From a virus (lineage: Duplodnaviria > Heunggongvirae > Uroviricota > Caudoviricetes): a stretch of 40,150 nucleotides of DNA. Below, one piece after another: positions 17,745 to 27,954 of this stretch (the stretch's first letter is position 1; each line of letters begins with the position of its first letter). Below the pieces are notes generated by a model that was not told the DNA's origin, made no database searches, and saw only the letters and a list, made by a program, of their open reading frames with translations. The stretch lies in the IMG/VR virus record IMGVR_UViG_2718218304_000002; one strand, 5' to 3'. Both the position numbers and the translations under genes were made by a program.

Positions 17745-18238
17745 TGCTGACCCCACAAACAGATTTCACGCTCAATCTCACGACGAGTCATGAGACCTTT
17801 CCATTGCTTACCGCCAGCATATGTCCAGCGACGTAGCTGATCACATGCGCCTTTGATATCGCCCTGGTTTATTTTGCGAAGAAGCGTCGATGTTCTGAAA
17901 TTGCCAGCACCCACGTTGTAAACGAATGAGTAAAGAGCGCCGCGCGTTGTTTCCGGTATATCGACTTTGATGTACGGGTTAATTTGTCTGGCGACCGTGG
18001 CAAGGTCTTTATTCAGGAGGGCTTTGCATTCTGCTTTGGTATACGTTTTACCGAGCATGATGTCTTTTCCTGTATGCCCGTGACATACAGTCCATACACC
18101 AACAATATCTTTGTATGGTATGTAGCTGACACCTTCCAGACCATCGTTACCACTTGGGCCAGTGATTAACACTGATGCTATAGCAATTGCTCCGCCACCA
18201 ATAGCAGCAGCAACGGCTTTTCGTAATGATGGAGGCAT
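17741..18238 (-). CDS. SAR endolysin (phage-21 R-type lysozyme)
   Basis: 165 aa with N-terminal signal-anchor-release segment ([20 protein letters not shown]) followed by a lysozyme domain; matches recalled phage 21 R. Confidence 0.85.
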
Positions 18239-18453
18239 TATTCACCTCTCGCAGCCTTGCGCTTATCTTCTTTAATCTTGAAATAAAGGTTTGTCAGGTA
18301 CGTCAGCAGGCCAAATACCAGGCTACCCAGCACACCGATTGCAGCCCACTGTGACGGAGTTACTCTATCGAGCAACTGTAAAAACCAGTAGCCAGCACTG
18401 CCTGCGGAGGTGCCGTAGGCAATGCCTGTTGAAATTTTGTCCATGGATTTCAT
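18238..18453 (-). CDS. Pinholin (phage-21 S-type, class II holin) with dual-start MKSM
   Basis: Within ORF 18238..18510 the sequence [26 protein letters not shown]... matches the S21 pinholin; two Met codons three codons apart give antiholin/holin forms. Confidence 0.85.
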
Positions 18454-18550
18454 AGCCTCACCTCCGCACGGAACGGATGGCATAGTTATTATGTGTAGGC
18501 TTTCAGACACATCAATCAGAGCCTTAATTGATATATATGCTGGAGACGAT

Positions 18551-18580
18551 GCAATATAAAAAGCTCGCCGTAGCGAGCTA
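18551..18580 (-). terminator. Rho-independent terminator candidate downstream of the TolA-like lipoprotein genes
   Basis: Hairpin AGCTCGC-CGTA-GCGAGCT (18562-18579) followed on the - strand by a T-run. Confidence 0.45.
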
Positions 18581-18704
18581 ATAAAATGTATTTCTCTGAT
18601 ATTATGTTTATTTGTATTAGCTCAGACTTGACATCACAGGTTTCGTATATAGAACATCATCAAATCTGTCAGTTTGCTATGAATGAGATATAGTAATTGA
18701 AGAG

Positions 18705-19100
18705 CTAACCTCGCATGTCAAAGCCAGATTTCTGAAAATCTCTGTAGACTTCCGGATTGTTGAAGGCCGGAAATTTGGCTTTATGAGCTGCGGACTTTAT
18801 CGCTTCGCAATAGGCTTTATCACCGTTACTGGTAGATATTTTTAACGCCGTGCCATCCTGAGAGAATTCCATATGCAACCTGCATTTTTTCCCTTTCCAG
18901 TTATGCGGCTCATCAAGTTTGGCATTAATTGCAGCTCTGATTCCCCGCGCTTGCGCCCCCCATTCATCCTGATCATCCCAGCGTCCTGAACTGCAACTAC
19001 CTGTAGCAGTAGTTTTGTGGCAATCTGAAGGGTGTAAAGGTGTGCATCCCGCAACAAAACCGACCCAAAAAGTCAACATAACGATTTTCTTTAATCCCAC
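18705..19100 (-). CDS. Lipoprotein with TolA domain-III-like C-terminal domain (paralogue 2)
   Basis: 131 aa; signal peptide with lipobox VAGC; C-terminal ~85 aa align with the recalled TolA C-terminal domain (GKKCRLHMEFSQDG / YCEAIKSAAHKAKFPAFNNPEVYRDFQKSGFD). Confidence 0.6.
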   Translation of the reverse strand: MGLKKIVMLTFWVGFVAGCTPLHPSDCHKTTATGSCSSGRWDDQDEWGAQARGIRAAINAKLDEPHNWKGKKCRLHMEFSQDGTALKISTSNGDKAYCEAIKSAAHKAKFPAFNNPEVYRDFQKSGFDMRG

Positions 19101-19250
19101 TTCTTGCTCCTCAATCCATTAAAATCTCAGCAATAGTAGTTGTTACGTCCGCCACTGGCTCAGAGCTGACTATCCGCTAAATTTAGCTCAGTGCCGTAGC
19201 TGTGTCAGAACAAACCTAAGCCGAAACCGTTTATTACAAAACAATAAATA

Positions 19251-19679
19251 TCAGGGTTTACAATCCAGCACCCCATTTTGAAATACTTTATATACTTCCG
19301 GCGAAGGGGGGGCAGGTATATCAGCATTCTTTATCGCATTCATCGCTTCACGACATAAATCGAGGTCTCCACTTTCTCTTTTAACCTCCAGTAGAAGGCC
19401 ATTCGGAGCCATATGCATTCTCAGTGTACACTCTTTTCCTGAATACTTACTCGCATCCCCGAACTGTTTTTCGATGGCGCTCTTGATTTGATGGGCATAC
19501 AGACGGATATCCTCACTAACATCAGAAGTACGTTCAGATGAACTCACATACTGTGTCTCTATTGCTTTATCGGAGTAATATGATGTACGGTCATGATAAT
19601 TTGTCGATACAGCATCAGTGCACCCGATAATAATCCCACTAATAATCAACGTAAGAATTGATGCGCTACGAAAACCCAT
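19251..19679 (-). CDS. Lipoprotein with TolA domain-III-like C-terminal domain (paralogue 1)
   Basis: 142 aa; lipobox IIGC; C-terminus YAHQIKSAIEKQFGDASKYSGKECTLRMHMAPNGLLLEVKRESGDLDLCREAMNAIKNADIPAPPSPEVYKVFQNGVLDCKP closely parallels recalled TolA domain III (YAGQIKSAIESKFYDASSYAGKTCTLRIKLAPDGMLL...IPKPPSQAVYEVFKNAPLDFKP). Confidence 0.65.
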   Translation of the reverse strand: MGFRSASILTLIISGIIIGCTDAVSTNYHDRTSYYSDKAIETQYVSSSERTSDVSEDIRLYAHQIKSAIEKQFGDASKYSGKECTLRMHMAPNGLLLEVKRESGDLDLCREAMNAIKNADIPAPPSPEVYKVFQNGVLDCKP

Positions 19680-20269
19680 TTTTCCTCACATATGTCATAT
19701 AGTAAAGGATTATATATACCGTTGTTTTGGACGCTCAAACAGCGAATCAGATCAAATAAAACGCACATTTGTTAACATTTACACAAAGTCTGCGTGGGAT
19801 ATTCTGAAAGAATATCCATAATGTGGAGAGAATCTATTGAAGTGCATGGTGCCGGGTGCCTCCCGGTGAACAAAATGTTCGTGATACCTGTCGGCGACAG
19901 AAAAGGTTAATGGTATCACCCCACCGCACAGGGGGATTCACCATGCAGGAGTTTTCTTAGCAAACTCACTGCGCGCCCGGCAACTCCCAACCACATAAAA
20001 TGCGGAGTTTGTGGTATTTATGCATATAACTCGCAGGAATTATCTTAAAAAACTGATGTCGATCCGGATTAAAAAGAAGCAGGTCATCATCAGATGACTG
20101 GAAAAAAGGAAAACAAAAAATACTCATCATACAGTTTTGATTGCAGGGATGAGCCTGCTATGCACAATATGCAGAATATAAGCAAGATAAAAATATGCAG
20201 GCATATTATTTCGGATTTTGTTATTAACACAACCTTTTTAATAATCATTTGGCATACAATAAACCAGCC

Positions 20270-20300
20270 CAAAAAGAACCGCCTAAACAGGCGGTTGGTC
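20270..20300 (-). terminator. Rho-independent terminator candidate (- strand)
   Basis: Hairpin AACCGCC-TAAACA-GGCGGTT (20277-20296), followed on the - strand by CTTTTT. Confidence 0.4.
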
Positions 20301-20613
20301 AATACAAAGGATGCTTCGTCTTTATTATAGTAATCTGAGGCGTCGGGTGTCTTGTATCAGACAACATATTGTCCCGCTAAACAGCGAATTACAAACCACC
20401 CTGCAATGATCTCTCATCTCATTTTATATGAGTTGACGACATCAGGATAACGCATCATCAGCCCCTGCCAAGAAATATCAAAACTCCCGCCAGCAATGTG
20501 TTATCACAATATTGTAAAAAAAACACAGCACCGAAACTATAACTGGTCTCTGTTATAATTTGGAGCAGAAAGACCAGTTGCCCAACTAGCAGCATTCTCC
20601 CCTGCTTTCCTGA

Positions 20614-20645
20614 CGTAAAAAAACCGCATTAAGCGGTTTTTTTAC
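20614..20645. terminator. Bidirectional Rho-independent terminator downstream of the Q-like gene (tR'-like position)
   Basis: AAAAAAA-CCGC-ATTAA-GCGG-TTTTTTT: 6-bp GC stem (20622-20627 with 20633-20638) flanked by an A7 and a T7 run, so it reads as a terminator on both strands. Confidence 0.6.
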
Positions 20646-20723: not shown

Positions 20724-21266
20724 TCAAGCCATTTTCTCAGCAAATGATTCACGCATGGGAATATATAGGGCATACTCAGCAACAGCTAACCAATTAGCAA
20801 TCCGTTTTTCGCATGTGCTAAAACACCACTCTGGGTGTGCATCATTTAGCAATTCAGCCATTTTGCGCTTAGTCATCCCTCGCCCTTCATAGCGTTGCCG
20901 GAGAATGCAAATCAATCCTGGATGCTCTGCCAGCACCTCACTTATGACTCGATCAATACATAACGCCTCTGCATCAGTACAATGCGCCAGCCAGCTCTTT
21001 TGCTTGCCGTTGATCATCTCTCGCAAAAACGCTTCCAGCTCAGCTTTCTCTATTCCCGCTTTTTTCATTCTGCGCAGGGCTTCATTAATGGCTGTTTTCG
21101 TCAGTTTTTTGGATGCCAACAACTGATTGAACATATTCCCTGACCTGCCACCGCCAATATACGACCAGCGCCCCCACATACGTAGTTTTCCCTGAATCCA
21201 GACACTTTCCAGCGTGGTGAGGCGAAGGTGTTCTCCGCTTTTTCCTGTATTCGTTGGGTAAATCAT
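20724..21266 (-). CDS. Hypothetical phage protein; candidate late-gene regulator (Q-like by position only)
   Basis: 180 aa with Cys pairs (HCTDAEALC, WCFSTC); last nin-region gene before a terminator and the late operon. No family recognised. Confidence 0.3.
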   Translation of the reverse strand: MIYPTNTGKSGEHLRLTTLESVWIQGKLRMWGRWSYIGGGRSGNMFNQLLASKKLTKTAINEALRRMKKAGIEKAELEAFLREMINGKQKSWLAHCTDAEALCIDRVISEVLAEHPGLICILRQRYEGRGMTKRKMAELLNDAHPEWCFSTCEKRIANWLAVAEYALYIPMRESFAEKMA

Positions 21267-23964: not shown

Positions 23965-24120
23965 TTACTCCCCAAGTTCGTAAGCTGTGAAGACAGCGAC
24001 CTCCGTCTGGTCGGTTCGGATTCGTACCTCGCAGAGGTCTTTCCTCGTTACCAGTACCGTCACTATAACGGTTAAACAGATGACGATCAGGGTGATTAAC
24101 ATCGCCTTTTGCTGCTTCAT
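23965..24120 (-). CDS. hok: Hok/Gef-family type I toxin (51 aa), with in-frame upstream mok-like extension to 24177
   Basis: MKQQKAMLITLIVICLTVIVTVLVTRKDLCEVRIRTDQTEVAVFTAYELGE matches recalled HokD/RelF-type toxins; ORF 23965..24177 adds 19 upstream codons; the leader upstream (- strand) has a hok-type 5' hairpin (GAGGCTATCTGCC...GGCAGATAG). Confidence 0.8.
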   Translation of the reverse strand: MKQQKAMLITLIVICLTVIVTVLVTRKDLCEVRIRTDQTEVAVFTAYELGE

Positions 24121-24168
24121 AGCCCGCTTCTTCTTGCCTTTCAGCACGTAAGAGACTAACCTACGTTT

Positions 24169-24235
24169 GTAAGGCATAGATTGGGCCCCAGATTAATGTT
24201 AAGCCTCTTGCCGGATGCGTAATATCAACTGGGAC
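24169..24235 (+). ncRNA. Putative Sok-like antisense RNA (approximate ends)
   Basis: On + strand, opposite the mok start: -35 TTGCCT (24134-24139), 17-bp spacer, -10 TAACCT (24157-24162) give a start near 24169. The 3' end is not defined. Confidence 0.3.
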
Positions 24236-24694
24236 TTTTTCTATCTGCCTTTGGTTTTCATGCCCAAGGCAGATAGCCTCAAGCCCCCGCAGCCATACTA
24301 TTTAACCCCCTTTACTTCGCCAATATGAAATCAATCAGAAAGGCGATCCATAAGAACAATAGCAAGACAATAAATTGCCACCACAGCCGCAATAGCCAAC
24401 GCACACTTGAGAACCAGCACGACAACCTCCTGTATTGGACGTGCACCTGCCCTGATAAATATGAGGCTGTCTCGTCAGTGATTCAATACAACTATTGGGT
24501 ATAGTTTCTGTGATTTTGTTCTGTAGAAATGGAATACAACAACCAGTCACTACCAGCACTTCTTTAAATACGCCAAGTCCGACGGAAGCCAACATCTAGT
24601 CTGCTTTGAACGAGGAGCTAACTTTGGTGTATATAGAAACATAATCACTACAGGTAGTTCCGAAAAAATTTCTCTATCGTGATACTTGCTGGTT

Positions 24695-25744
24695 TTATTT
24701 TAATCTCTGTAATTTTTTACGCAGAGCATTAACTCGTCTCTGAACCCCTATTTTTGGATTAAAGCTCAAAGCTTTTTCATAGGCATCAAGAGCATCACTA
24801 AAGTTACCAAGTAAATCATTTGCTTCACCTTTGATGCGAAATGCGGCTGCAGCCCAGTCAGTTCGGTCTTTCGCTCCTTCATTAAGAGCCATTTCAATTG
24901 CTTTCAATGCTTTTTGAGCATTCTTCTCACTGGGATGTTCTCTTAAAAGCGCTCTCGCGGCCTCTACTTTAAGGTTGAAATTTCCTTTATATAGACAAGC
25001 ATCTTTATACGCTTCCACGTCAATGGGAATACCGATGGCAGTGTATCTGAAGTATCCAATATTTTTGCATTTCACTTTCAGCGATCTTAGCCCCCCATTT
25101 TCATCGAGATCGAAGAAATAACTATCAGCCCATCCATACTCAGGTTTAATGGAAAATATTGTTGTTTTTGACCACAGATTTATTACCTCAAGGATATTTC
25201 CATCTTTACCGGGCGCTGCGGCTGTCTGAACCGATGCGTATTTACCACAATGAGAAATTCCGATATTATAGATATTTGCTTCATAATGACGTCTAAACTT
25301 TTCATTTCCTTCAACATCAATAGCAATCAAATCAGCTTGCAGCGCAGAACCAAATCCAGCGTCATGAACAATATAATCACCTGTGTCAGCGACAGCAGCA
25401 TTAAATGGTCGGGCAATAGTTCTGAGCTTATGAAGGATACGAAAAGTTGGTTTATTAACTAAAACAACTGTTCCAAATCCACTTTCCCGGTGCCCTCCCC
25501 TTCCATTGCCATCAAAGTCACTACAGCCTACAACCCAATGTTTGTTTGCAGACAGATACGCCTGTCCAAAAAAATAAGGAGAATCAATAGTAAGCCAATC
25601 GTTTTCGATTGATATATTTCCGTTTTGTTTCTTGAGTTTAGGAGTTATGTTAGCTGTTAACTCATGCAAACTTGAAGGCGTCATTGTTTTTGCAGAAGTT
25701 ATCCTGGAGGTAAGCAAATTGAATAGTTGTGAAATAAATCCCAT
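24695..25744 (-). CDS. Hypothetical protein with C-terminal TPR-like repeats (349 aa)
   Basis: AT-rich ORF; AGGAG 9 nt upstream of ATG; C-terminal ~100 aa form TPR-like helical repeats; N-terminal ~250 aa unrecognised. Confidence 0.5.
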   Translation of the reverse strand: MGFISQLFNLLTSRITSAKTMTPSSLHELTANITPKLKKQNGNISIENDWLTIDSPYFFGQAYLSANKHWVVGCSDFDGNGRGGHRESGFGTVVLVNKPTFRILHKLRTIARPFNAAVADTGDYIVHDAGFGSALQADLIAIDVEGNEKFRRHYEANIYNIGISHCGKYASVQTAAAPGKDGNILEVINLWSKTTIFSIKPEYGWADSYFFDLDENGGLRSLKVKCKNIGYFRYTAIGIPIDVEAYKDACLYKGNFNLKVEAARALLREHPSEKNAQKALKAIEMALNEGAKDRTDWAAAAFRIKGEANDLLGNFSDALDAYEKALSFNPKIGVQRRVNALRKKLQRLK

Positions 25745-26122
25745 TTATAAATACTCCTGAGTAGCTTTTTTAAAACGTTGGCACTTATATGGCCCTCCGT
25801 GGACAAAGTGGATCCAAAAATGTCCATTCTATCTAAGGCCAGACGAACGTTCTGGTTGAAAATCTGAGTATCGCTTCGTCGCTAATTCGCCGTTAGACAT
25901 ATTTAACCACTTTTAGCAAAAATATGCACATTTTTCATCCAAGAAAACAAAAAATCGCCATCCGCAACAATCTGCTTGTTTTCGTTAAATTTTGACAATC
26001 ACGCCTTTTTCTTCTCGGCAGAGCTGAAAAATGCTAAAGTCGTATCTGGGTGGATTAATCGTATACATGGGAAAAGTAGATACGGAAGAAAGGGGAAAAG
26101 TAAAAGGTAGATGCAAAAGAAA

Positions 26123-26155
26123 GGTCCGCTTTGAGCGAGGAGCGGACTTGTTAAT
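26123..26155 (-). terminator. Rho-independent terminator candidate downstream of the GmrSD-like gene
   Basis: Hairpin GTCCGCT-(10 nt)-AGCGGAC followed on the - strand by CTTTCTTTT. Confidence 0.4.
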
Positions 26156-26271
26156 ATCGAGCCTATCTCGTAATGATATAATTGAAGACATGTTGTAGGC
26201 CTAGCAGGATATCCATGACTCATCAAACTGTCAGTAAAACATCCCACTTACGCCTATGTTTTATTGATAGA

Positions 26272-27954
26272 TTAACCAATTTTCCATACATTTACTGCTT
26301 GTTCCGACATCCATTTTTGAAAATCATTGACAGCCTCTAAATTCCATTCAGGATACTGTGTAATCTTAGCCGCTAATTTATACTTTGATTTTCCATATTC
26401 ATTTTTCTTCACTTCAAATGAAGCTCTTTTTAGATTATCTTTATCCATCAAAACCATATTTCCTAACCTATCCTTTACGTCATTAACCCCCTCCCCAAAC
26501 GAATTGCACCACCCCTTCTCTGGGTTAAATGGACAAATATGTTCGAGTGTAACTTTTTCATGATCGCAATTATTACCAAGATATTGTTCAATTTCAGCCA
26601 AGAGAAATCTAATTTTTTTGGCTGTTTGTCTACTTGGCATTCGATGAAATTCAAAAGCATTAAAGAACACGTTATCATCAGGATATAACCTCTTAAACTC
26701 CTCCCCATTTTTCACATTGCTAGCTCTCTTGTATTCCTTATTGGAGATCTTAATCGCAATTTGATTATACATGCTTTCTTGTTCACTTGGTGATAAATGA
26801 CAAATAACATTGTATCTAATTGATAAAATATATAAATAACGAGTCAGGCTGACGAACTCATCTGGATTGAATTGATTAAAAGCTGATAGCAATACTGTTA
26901 ATGGCTGTCTAATATTAAAGAGTCTAATGCCGTTCAGATAATGAATGGCCTTCTTGTATTTAGTATCTTGCTCTGCCCACCATGAATCATTCGGGTTAAT
27001 CAATGATGCATAAATAGGTGCGGAATTTATCAGTGATCTTAAATAATCGTATGCTTCTTTAGGGGTTGTAATTACTTTTCTCATTGAAGTGTATAAATTA
27101 TTTTTTGTGACCATTTTTCTATGAGAATTATGATGATACCTAATGTAATCAGAAACATTGCTTTCTCCCAACTGATCGATAATCTCCGACCATTGCTCAT
27201 CTAACTCATCTAATTCCTCATCTCCGATTTTCTCATCCTTAGTTACTATCGAAAACAAATAGTTTTTTAAGAGATCTGGCGTGGATAACTGGACTCCTCT
27301 CGCATTTAAAGTTTCAAATACTTTGTATGCATTTAAATCATCTTGAACAACTATTTTTGTAAAAACCATACTCGAAGAAAAATCGGCAATAAACTGTGCG
27401 ATCTCAGCGCCGGTATTACCGAACTCCTTCTTTTGGAAAAAATCAAAGCATTTCTTGAGTAGCTTATTTGTAGATGTAGTTCCACGAGTATTAGGAGCTT
27501 CTAAGTTTGAACAGATGCTTTGAAAATATCTTTTATTATTTCTATTTAAATCTAGCTTGCTAACCACCTTTAATGAAACGAAGTTTTTGTTACCCACAAA
27601 TGTCTTTGTTATTGCATCAAGTCGCTCTGTGTTTTGTTCAACCTCCTCTCCTTTATCTATCAAGTTTTTAATGGCTTTCATGGCTGCTAGAACTATAATC
27701 GACAAGGTTACTAATCGTTGTTGACCGTCAATGACCTCATGTTGATACTGTTCTTTTTGTTGAAGAACTATATATCCCATATAATGAAAACCTTCATCAT
27801 CAAGTGCTGTAACATCACTCCAAAGGTCCTCCCATTGTTCTACATCCCAAGCATAGTCTCGCTGGAATCTAGGAACAATGTACTTATTTGACCCTCCAAT
27901 TAATTCATTGAAGTTCTCATTTTTTGGTTCCATTAACATAAACTGTTTGGCCAT
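26272..27954 (-). CDS. GmrSD-family type IV restriction endonuclease-like protein (DUF262 + DUF1524/His-Me finger)
   Basis: 560 aa; N-terminal DUF262 motifs (YIVPRFQRDYAWD, VIDGQQRL) and C-terminal His-Me motif (TLEHICPFNPEKGW...N...N); very AT-rich coding sequence. Confidence 0.75.
   Translation of the reverse strand: MAKQFMLMEPKNENFNELIGGSNKYIVPRFQRDYAWDVEQWEDLWSDVTALDDEGFHYMGYIVLQQKEQYQHEVIDGQQRLVTLSIIVLAAMKAIKNLIDKGEEVEQNTERLDAITKTFVGNKNFVSLKVVSKLDLNRNNKRYFQSICSNLEAPNTRGTTSTNKLLKKCFDFFQKKEFGNTGAEIAQFIADFSSSMVFTKIVVQDDLNAYKVFETLNARGVQLSTPDLLKNYLFSIVTKDEKIGDEELDELDEQWSEIIDQLGESNVSDYIRYHHNSHRKMVTKNNLYTSMRKVITTPKEAYDYLRSLINSAPIYASLINPNDSWWAEQDTKYKKAIHYLNGIRLFNIRQPLTVLLSAFNQFNPDEFVSLTRYLYILSIRYNVICHLSPSEQESMYNQIAIKISNKEYKRASNVKNGEEFKRLYPDDNVFFNAFEFHRMPSRQTAKKIRFLLAEIEQYLGNNCDHEKVTLEHICPFNPEKGWCNSFGEGVNDVKDRLGNMVLMDKDNLKRASFEVKKNEYGKSKYKLAAKITQYPEWNLEAVNDFQKWMSEQAVNVWKIG

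Follow-up and report, generated by a model that had tools for sequence, protein, structure and literature searches.

The question raised by the late region of the virus record IMGVR_UViG_2718218304_000002 is why a prophage should encode two small lipoproteins that each end in a copy of a host domain, domain III of TolA (TolAIII), the tip through which colicins and filamentous phages gain entry. The genes, here called A (19679..19251) and B (19100..18705), lie on the minus strand of the window, meaning the whole 40,150-nucleotide stretch of DNA that was analysed. Sequence and structural comparisons confirm that both products have a lipoprotein signal peptide and a complete TolA domain III. As to their purpose, the reading favoured here is that they act as periplasmic decoys conferring tolerance to colicins or filamentous phages, a proposal drawn from the sequences that is given about an even chance of being right. 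The two genes and their parts are as follows.

19251..19679, minus strand: gene A, a 142-residue lipoprotein with a signal peptide, a disordered tether of about 30 residues and TolA domain III
18705..19100, minus strand: gene B, a 131-residue lipoprotein in which a conserved tether with a Cys loop joins the signal peptide to a diverged TolA domain III
19254..19529, minus strand: TolAIII domain of A, residues 51-142, predicted local distance difference test (pLDDT) about 90, disulfide Cys pair kept
18708..18980, minus strand: TolAIII domain of B, residues 41-131, pLDDT about 90
19620..19679, minus strand: signal peptide and lipobox of A, MGFRSASILTLIISGIIIG followed by C20, Thr at +2, from the translation
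19044..19100, minus strand: signal peptide and lipobox of B, MGLKKIVMLTFWVGFVAG followed by C19, Thr at +2, from the translation

The resemblance of the C-terminal domains to TolA domain III, which the first-pass annotation had recognised, goes far past what chance would give. The Pfam profile PF06519 (TolA C-terminal, TolA_C; length 96, gathering cut-off 25 bits) matches A with 81.4 bits (E 5.5e-23, profile positions 4-94) and B with 54.6 bits (E 1.3e-14, profile positions 10-92). Against the TolAIII chains in the PDB (1S62, 3QDP, 2X9A, 1TOL and full-length cryo-electron microscopy chains), phmmer gives values of about 1e-26 for A and about 5e-9 for B. Identity to residues 336-421 of E. coli TolA is 59.3% over 86 residues for A and 33.8% for B, while A and B share 28% with each other. 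The best Foldseek match of the AlphaFold2 model is 2x9a_B for A (template modelling score, TM, 0.96; root-mean-square deviation, rmsd, 0.6 Å) and 3qdp for B (TM 0.91, rmsd 1.1 Å), followed at lower rank by Vibrio and Pseudomonas TolAIII and then by TonB C-terminal domains. Both models have three helices and a sheet of three strands, as in TolAIII, with its disulfide, and the two cysteines that form it are invariant. The profile and structure comparison that the first-pass annotation had proposed thus yields clear matches for both proteins.

The remainder of TolA is missing. Neither the transmembrane domain I nor the helical domain II is present in A (142 residues) or B (131 residues), so the two proteins cannot couple to TolQR. 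The NCBIfam full-length TolA models (362 and 387 positions) align over their last ~80-100 positions only; PRK09510 scores 102.8 for A and 53.7 for B against a cut-off of 213, and TIGR02794 scores 73.3 bits for A, above its cut-off of 59.45. The name 'cell envelope integrity protein TolA' given to A by RefSeq and its annotation pipeline PGAP is an over-annotation.

At the other end, both open reading frames had been read from the outset as carrying lipoprotein signal peptides, and this holds at the positions listed above. The rule applied asks for Lys or Arg in the n-region, an uncharged h-region and a lipobox of the form [LVI][ASTVI][GAS]C with its Cys at positions 15-35; by eye, A has R4 and IIG-C20, and B has K4, K5 and VAG-C19. 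Gene A starts with ATG behind the Shine-Dalgarno sequence GAGGA, and gene B with GTG, preceded by GAGGAG at a spacing of 6 nt. The plasmid homologues have ATG at the position of B's start, and RefSeq begins B at an internal ATG that yields a shorter protein; the GTG is preferred because the internal ATG would cost B its charged n-region. Lipoproteins lacking Asp at +2 are sorted to the outer membrane, and from the Thr at this position A and B are predicted to be outer-membrane lipoproteins.

Between lipid and domain lie the N-terminal tethers, both disordered in the AlphaFold2 models. The tether of B (residues 19-40, window 18981-19046, minus strand) is disordered, yet across 119 homologues its conservation equals that of the folded domain, with the consensus C19-xPLHPSx-C27-HKTTAxGS-C36-SSGRW. 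More distant relatives retain Cys-x7-Cys-x8-Cys alone, without the W-rich part. The pattern points to a loop, closed by a disulfide, that has its own function. The segment SSGRWDDQDEWG in the same tether was considered as a mimic of the colicin TolB box and rejected, because in the alignments DEWGAQARGIRAAI is the counterpart of TolA NNYAGQIKSAI, where helix α1 begins, and because the W-rich part is lost in the distant relatives.

Whether such domains could act on invaders depends on the surfaces by which TolA is bound. Three ligands attach to strand β3 of TolA (L417, D418, K420) by β-strand addition: the N-terminus of TolB, colicin N, and the N1 domain of the phage protein g3p, or g3p-N1 (Ridley & Lakey 2015, PMC4339652). 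Proline substitutions in this strand abolish binding of all three, and the affinity of TolAIII is about 1 µM for colicin N and g3p and about 40 µM for TolB (PMC4339652; also PMC7391070). In A the strand reads GVLDFKP in most alleles and GVLDCKP in the window, where residue 140 (19260-19262, minus strand) is Cys and not the Phe of TolA and most database alleles. Its counterpart in B, SGFDMRG, is almost invariant in the 119 homologues and among the most conserved stretches of the protein. Colicin A binds the opposite edge of TolAIII, L375-P380, with cation-π contacts to K368, K379 and K396 (PMC3365938). According to the alignments, the positions of these three lysines are occupied by H, K and K in A and by E, S and H in B; A could plausibly bind colicin A, and B probably does not.

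In the favoured reading, A and B would be attached by a flexible linker to the periplasmic side of the outer membrane, where the tip of TolA meets its ligands. As competitive decoys they would hold the parts of group A colicins that bind TolA, and likewise the N1 domain of g3p, in complexes that lead nowhere: a tethered, free TolAIII would meet the incoming colicin translocation domains and g3p ahead of the real TolA, with no motor behind it, and the lysogen would then tolerate Tol-dependent invaders. TolB, the physiological partner, binds TolAIII about 40-fold less tightly than the parasite ligands do, so that invaders could be intercepted by a moderate quantity of decoy with little harm to Tol-Pal. 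TolAIII exported to the periplasm reportedly confers colicin tolerance.

The wider family of short secreted TolAIII proteins provides the circumstantial support. An exhaustive profile search of 1.84 billion cluster representatives returned 568 clusters at E <= 1e-3, and among the best 150 of these, 101 have at most 170 residues. Within the same best 150, most of the short proteins (<=170 residues) that look full-length carry a lipobox, and many others are gene-call fragments. Identity to E. coli TolAIII reaches 56-67% in several short lipoproteins, from which it follows that close copies of the host domain arose or were kept more than once. Beyond the prophages, a Citrobacter plasmid carries a soluble periplasmic form of TolAIII next to psiA, and IncFII(K) Klebsiella plasmids carry a 144-residue TolA_C lipoprotein beside a thioredoxin-fold gene. 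On large Klebsiella plasmids, such as the K. pneumoniae IncFII plasmid NZ_CP024839.1 (6229-7258), the TolA_C lipoprotein gene lies directly downstream of a thioredoxin-fold (DsbC/TraF-like) gene, whose product may help disulfide formation in TolA_C.

Klebsiella ColRNAI plasmids of 10-12 kb bring together a colicin E3-type immunity protein, a lysis protein, a TolA_C lipoprotein and a TonB_C protein. The TolA_C lipoprotein of this bacteriocin plasmid scores 85.8 bits and ends in NAPLDFRP, and its gene overlaps the gene for the secreted TonB_C protein, which scores 42.5 bits.

Klebsiella pneumoniae plasmid NZ_CP033403.1, 8137-8870: overlapping TolA_C and TonB_C genes, with hundreds of matching Klebsiella plasmid records

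Together the two proteins look like decoys for both colicin import systems, and no other circumstantial observation speaks as strongly for an interference function as this pairing of motor-less TolA_C and TonB_C tips on a bacteriocin plasmid. The pili of IncF and IncI-complex conjugative plasmids are the receptors of TolA-dependent filamentous phages, so plasmids of these types that carry TolAIII genes would stand to gain from a decoy. The first-pass annotation had proposed a decoy that gives superinfection exclusion or colicin tolerance, or that interferes with Tol-Pal. The presence of such genes on conjugative and bacteriocin plasmids, the TolA_C/TonB_C pair, the retained β3 motif and purifying selection (below) together strengthen this proposal, all of them circumstantially. 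A broader proposal, put forward tentatively and at somewhat less than even confidence, is that motor-less secreted copies of TolAIII and of the TonB C-terminal domain form a widespread, undescribed class of decoys against Tol- and Ton-dependent bacteriocins and pilus-specific filamentous phages. Its carriers would be prophages, conjugative plasmids and bacteriocin plasmids, with the TonB C-terminal protein accompanying one TolAIII lipoprotein on the Klebsiella plasmids.

The first-pass annotation knew of no characterised system of this kind, and searches of the published full-text literature agree, having found no description of natural TolAIII-only proteins. The genes themselves are already annotated in RefSeq as TolA-domain proteins, and both belong to PHROG 5772, of unknown function. 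Three literature leads were set aside: the tolA of an O157 soil microarray is the chromosomal gene, a remark on 'TolA' tied to EDL933_2012 concerns a tail-fibre gene, and in a Shigella sonnei colicin paper the tolA in question is again the chromosomal one. A and B are existing members of the TolA_C family; the hypothesis on their function, well motivated, would place them among the known kinds of mobile-element cargo that guard the entry routes of the host.

The setting of the pair bears on when it would be made. The window is a Rac-type E. coli prophage with intR, recET, racR, ydaSTUV, DUF1367/DUF1364/DUF1133, A, B, essD-rrrD-Rz/Rz1, trkG and terminase, in which A and B, separated by a spacer of 150 nt, stand between the late regulator and the holin; synthesis in large amounts is accordingly expected late in lytic growth. 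The elements flanking the pair are listed below.

20724..21266, minus strand: DUF1133 gene for a Q-like late regulator, ~1 kb upstream of A
19790..19976, minus strand: STnc100-family RNA element (Rfam RF02076), 86.6 bits against a gathering score of 47, directly upstream of A
19709..19738, minus strand: candidate sigma-70-like promoter, TTGAGC, 18 nt, TATAAT, matching 10/12 consensus positions, 30 nt upstream of the A start
18552..18579, minus strand: terminator-like GC-rich hairpin AGCTCGCTACGGCGAGCT followed by the T-run TTTTATATTG, between B and the holin
18238..18453, minus strand: holin gene essD, first gene of the lysis cassette, directly downstream of the A-B pair

The guanine-plus-cytosine (GC) content of the pair and its leader is 38-48%, compared with 49-53% for the lysis genes and the genes just upstream of the Q-like gene and 45-48% for the Q-like gene itself. 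A terminator-like site follows the cargo, the cargo is present in some related phages and absent from others, and it moves as a unit, all of which are marks of a moron. The moron-like slot ahead of the lysis cassette, with an apparent terminator of its own, was part of the original description and is upheld: the pair lies between the Q-like gene and essD, with the hairpin and T-run (18579..18562) after B. The layout resembles that of a moron, the promoter being a consensus match only and expression in the lysogen putative. The STnc100 element could be a late-leader RNA or the 5' leader of an A-B transcript.

The ~1-kb non-coding stretch from the Q-like gene to A contains, in this order, a hairpin, a promoter-like site and a terminator-like hairpin, which along with STnc100 are the candidates for PR'/tR' of this Rac-type late operon.

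~20612-20640, minus strand: strong hairpin flanked by A and T runs, right after the Q-like gene
20324..20353, minus strand: promoter-like site, ~30 nt ahead of the terminator-like site
20277..20296, minus strand: terminator-like site within the same stretch

Further cargo may lie at the early-to-late junction (window ~24700-27950), where a tetratricopeptide-repeat gene and a DUF262 gene stand beside hok/sok (Rfam sok, 24115-24288). This segment looks like candidate anti-phage defence cargo, and the ydaW-to-rzpR segment that holds the two genes is missing in K-12 Rac.

The distribution of A and B shows that they have separate histories. Of 5426 complete E. coli genomes, 774 (14%) contain the 1.4-kb A-B region at >=99% identity over almost its whole length. 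The Rac prophage of K-12 MG1655 is without the pair, running from ydaW directly to the rzpR pseudogene and trkG as part of a larger deletion, and it is probably because K-12 lacks both genes that they have gone unstudied. Prophage loci taken from IMG/VR contigs fall into three groups. In the first, A is present at 99% in 37 loci, and B follows 154 nt downstream, and then the holin, in all 35 of the 35 loci with downstream DNA. This A-B-holin block occurs in Rac-type backgrounds (DUF1133 and RrrD) and in at least nine lambdoid loci with an unrelated lysozyme (33-35% identity), so that the pair is not confined to the Rac-like prophages across which its conservation was originally to be checked. 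The exchanged block corresponds to 18237-19967 (holin, B, A and STnc100) and is 96.8% identical to mEp460_ev081. That phage was dropped as independent evidence, its name suggesting a laboratory-evolved recombinant, and the IMG/VR prophage loci were used in its place.

The second group consists of 23 loci with a variant of A (64-73%), never with B alongside, in a slot after a different Q (PF03589), TfpB and an AraC-type regulator and before nanS-p and the holin. This is the slot in which Stx phages carry stx. Strong terminator-like sites follow the gene in these A-only prophages. The third group comprises 16 loci with a B-type gene alone, at the edge of predicted prophages by umuDC, a SRAP gene and btuE-btuD-nlpC. 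In other enterobacteria a B-type gene lies between umuDC and a SRAP (YedK-like) gene at a degraded-prophage border near btuE-btuD-nlpC, which suggests an island hotspot beside these genes. Homologues of B at 78-89% identity occur in Citrobacter, Enterobacter, Serratia, Raoultella and Klebsiella, and in Enterobacter the surroundings of the gene are not phage-like.

B is also found, at 88% amino-acid identity, on ~600 plasmids of the IncF (pO157) and IncI-complex types, where DNA homology with the prophage gene covers the gene and ~30 nt upstream only. On pO157 the B-type gene lies past the ssb-psiBA-hok region and ahead of toxB, and on an IncK2/Z plasmid directly after the relaxase gene. A position in the early-entering leading region of plasmids was considered for B and rejected, as the pO157 and IncK2/Z placements differ. 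A and B are therefore two lineages brought together, with no local duplication. The first-pass annotation had called them paralogous and too diverged for a recent duplication; the divergence stands at 28% identity, and the term paralogous holds for the domain family, but not for a pair with a common history, given the A-only prophages and the B-type genes of plasmids and chromosomes.

Selection on the two genes was estimated as the ratio of nonsynonymous to synonymous substitution rates (dN/dS) by the Nei-Gojobori method. The TolAIII domain of A compared with a 65%-identical prophage variant gives a dN/dS of 0.26 (dS 0.45), that of B compared with the plasmid copies 0.08, and the whole of B compared with an Enterobacter chromosomal copy 0.075 at a dS of 1.1. 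Purifying selection maintains A and B, which are working proteins.

Several observations weigh against the proposal that these proteins are decoys. The F140C substitution of the window's A allele lies in the key β3 strand, where an unpaired periplasmic Cys140 might change binding or abolish it. Identity of B to TolAIII is only 34%, and none of the three contact lysines for colicin A remains in it. Promoter-like matches in the region number 11, against 7.6 ± 2.9 in shuffled sequences, and so are not enriched, and the A-only prophages have no clear promoter of their own ahead of the gene. The pair may therefore be expressed only late in the lytic cycle, and a role linked to lysis would suit that better than one in protecting the lysogen. 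The B-type genes in Enterobacter and other chromosomes, located in or beside islands next to btuE, allow a housekeeping role. Finally, the PADLOC defence models match neither A nor B.

The late position leads to the first alternative, that A and B are Tol-Pal antagonists serving the lytic cycle of the phage, a reading regarded as unlikely. Free TolAIII made late, together with holin, endolysin and spanins from a Q-dependent transcript, would sequester the N-terminus of TolB; Tol-Pal would be uncoupled and the outer membrane weakened, as an aid to lysis or release or with vesicle shedding as the outcome. The holin is the next gene after the pair, and all three genes are exchanged together; this linkage may, however, reflect recombination flanks only, and the terminator-like site after B sets the pair apart from the holin in the manner of cargo. 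Strand β3 is the TolB site of TolA, and blocking it gives the full tol phenotype, but the affinity between TolA and TolB is low at ~40 µM. According to a passage of PMC6195910, which cites Levengood-Freyermuth 1993 and Wan & Baneyx 1998, periplasm-exported TolAIII perturbs the envelope and serves to make E. coli leaky, so that an effect of this kind is seen in laboratory cells. The weak evidence for a promoter active in the lysogen also fits such an antagonist. Against this, the prophage already has a complete Rz/Rz1 spanin pair, and TolAIII lipoproteins, B-type and others, are also encoded where there is no lysis programme, on plasmids and chromosomes.

The plasmid and chromosomal copies lead to a second alternative, likewise considered improbable, in which the lipoproteins, B especially, are envelope proteins with no decoy function. 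The fold would then serve as a general module of β-strand addition for another periplasmic or outer-membrane partner, for example in the modulation of Tol-Pal, in Pal mobilisation or at an outer-membrane transporter. B-type genes are stable in the chromosomes of Enterobacter, Citrobacter, Serratia, Raoultella and Klebsiella at 78-89% identity and very low dN/dS, B has a conserved Cys-loop tether not found in TolA and has diverged at the colicin A site, and a thioredoxin-fold protein is paired with the TolA_C gene on IncFII(K) plasmids. A, on the other hand, is a close copy of host TolAIII with the LDFKP strand kept, the family is strongly tied to mobile elements, and it is difficult to account for the pairing with TonB_C on bacteriocin plasmids other than by interference with two import systems.

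The weakest reading, a most improbable one in which inert tolA fragments were picked up by recombination and mis-called as genes, or in which A is a second functional TolA as its PGAP name and its score above the TIGR02794 cut-off would have it, is already refuted in practice by selection and architecture: the TIGR02794 and PRK09510 matches reach the last ~80-100 model positions only, without domains I and II neither protein can be TolA, and both genes have good ribosome-binding sites, encode canonical lipoprotein signal peptides, keep the disulfide cysteines intact, show a dN/dS of 0.08-0.26 and are conserved across hundreds of genomes.

If the decoy reading is true, the pair would represent a new mechanism of protection, in which a free copy of a co-receptor domain soaks up the invader instead of the receptor being masked or removed. 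It would partly explain the natural variation in sensitivity to colicins and filamentous phages among E. coli, Shigella and Klebsiella isolates, and its reach would include 14% of complete E. coli genomes, pO157, many IncI-complex plasmids and, through related genes, epidemic Klebsiella plasmids. It would also bear on antibacterial strategies based on bacteriocins or M13, and the proteins would be natural probes of the TolA-TolB interaction.

Comparison with known systems places A and B nearest to TolA domain III of E. coli itself (1TOL, 1S62, 2X9A, 3QDP/3QDR), with which they share the fold, the disulfide pair and the C-terminal β3 strand. They differ from TolA in having neither the inner-membrane anchor nor domain II, in a predicted N-terminal lipid at the opposite membrane, and in being encoded by prophages and plasmids and not by the tol-pal operon. 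The periplasmic TolAIII constructs of the laboratory likewise place free TolAIII in the periplasm of a tolA+ cell, but those are soluble, over-produced and artificial, whereas A and B are natural, predicted to be lipid-anchored, diverged and under selection. Llp of T5 and Cor of phi80, N15 and HK022 are small, periplasm-facing phage lipoproteins of the outer membrane that close an entry route of phages and colicins. These bind and inactivate FhuA, whereas A and B would imitate a periplasmic co-receptor and soak up the ligand of the invader. No relation of A or B to Llp or Cor in sequence or fold was seen, the PHROG match of both being 5772 only.

Cells infected by filamentous phages make g3p internally and become tolerant. 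That tolerance involves the same contact between g3p-N1 and TolAIII in mirror image: there the ligand saturates TolA, and here, as proposed, a copy of TolA would saturate the ligand. With the morons found between Q and the lysis genes, such as stx, A and B share the slot, a GC content lower than that of the flanks, a terminator-like site and exchange between phages as a block, within the moron concept reviewed for lambdoid phages in PMC3594210. They differ from these morons in their cargo and in a promoter that is so far a candidate.

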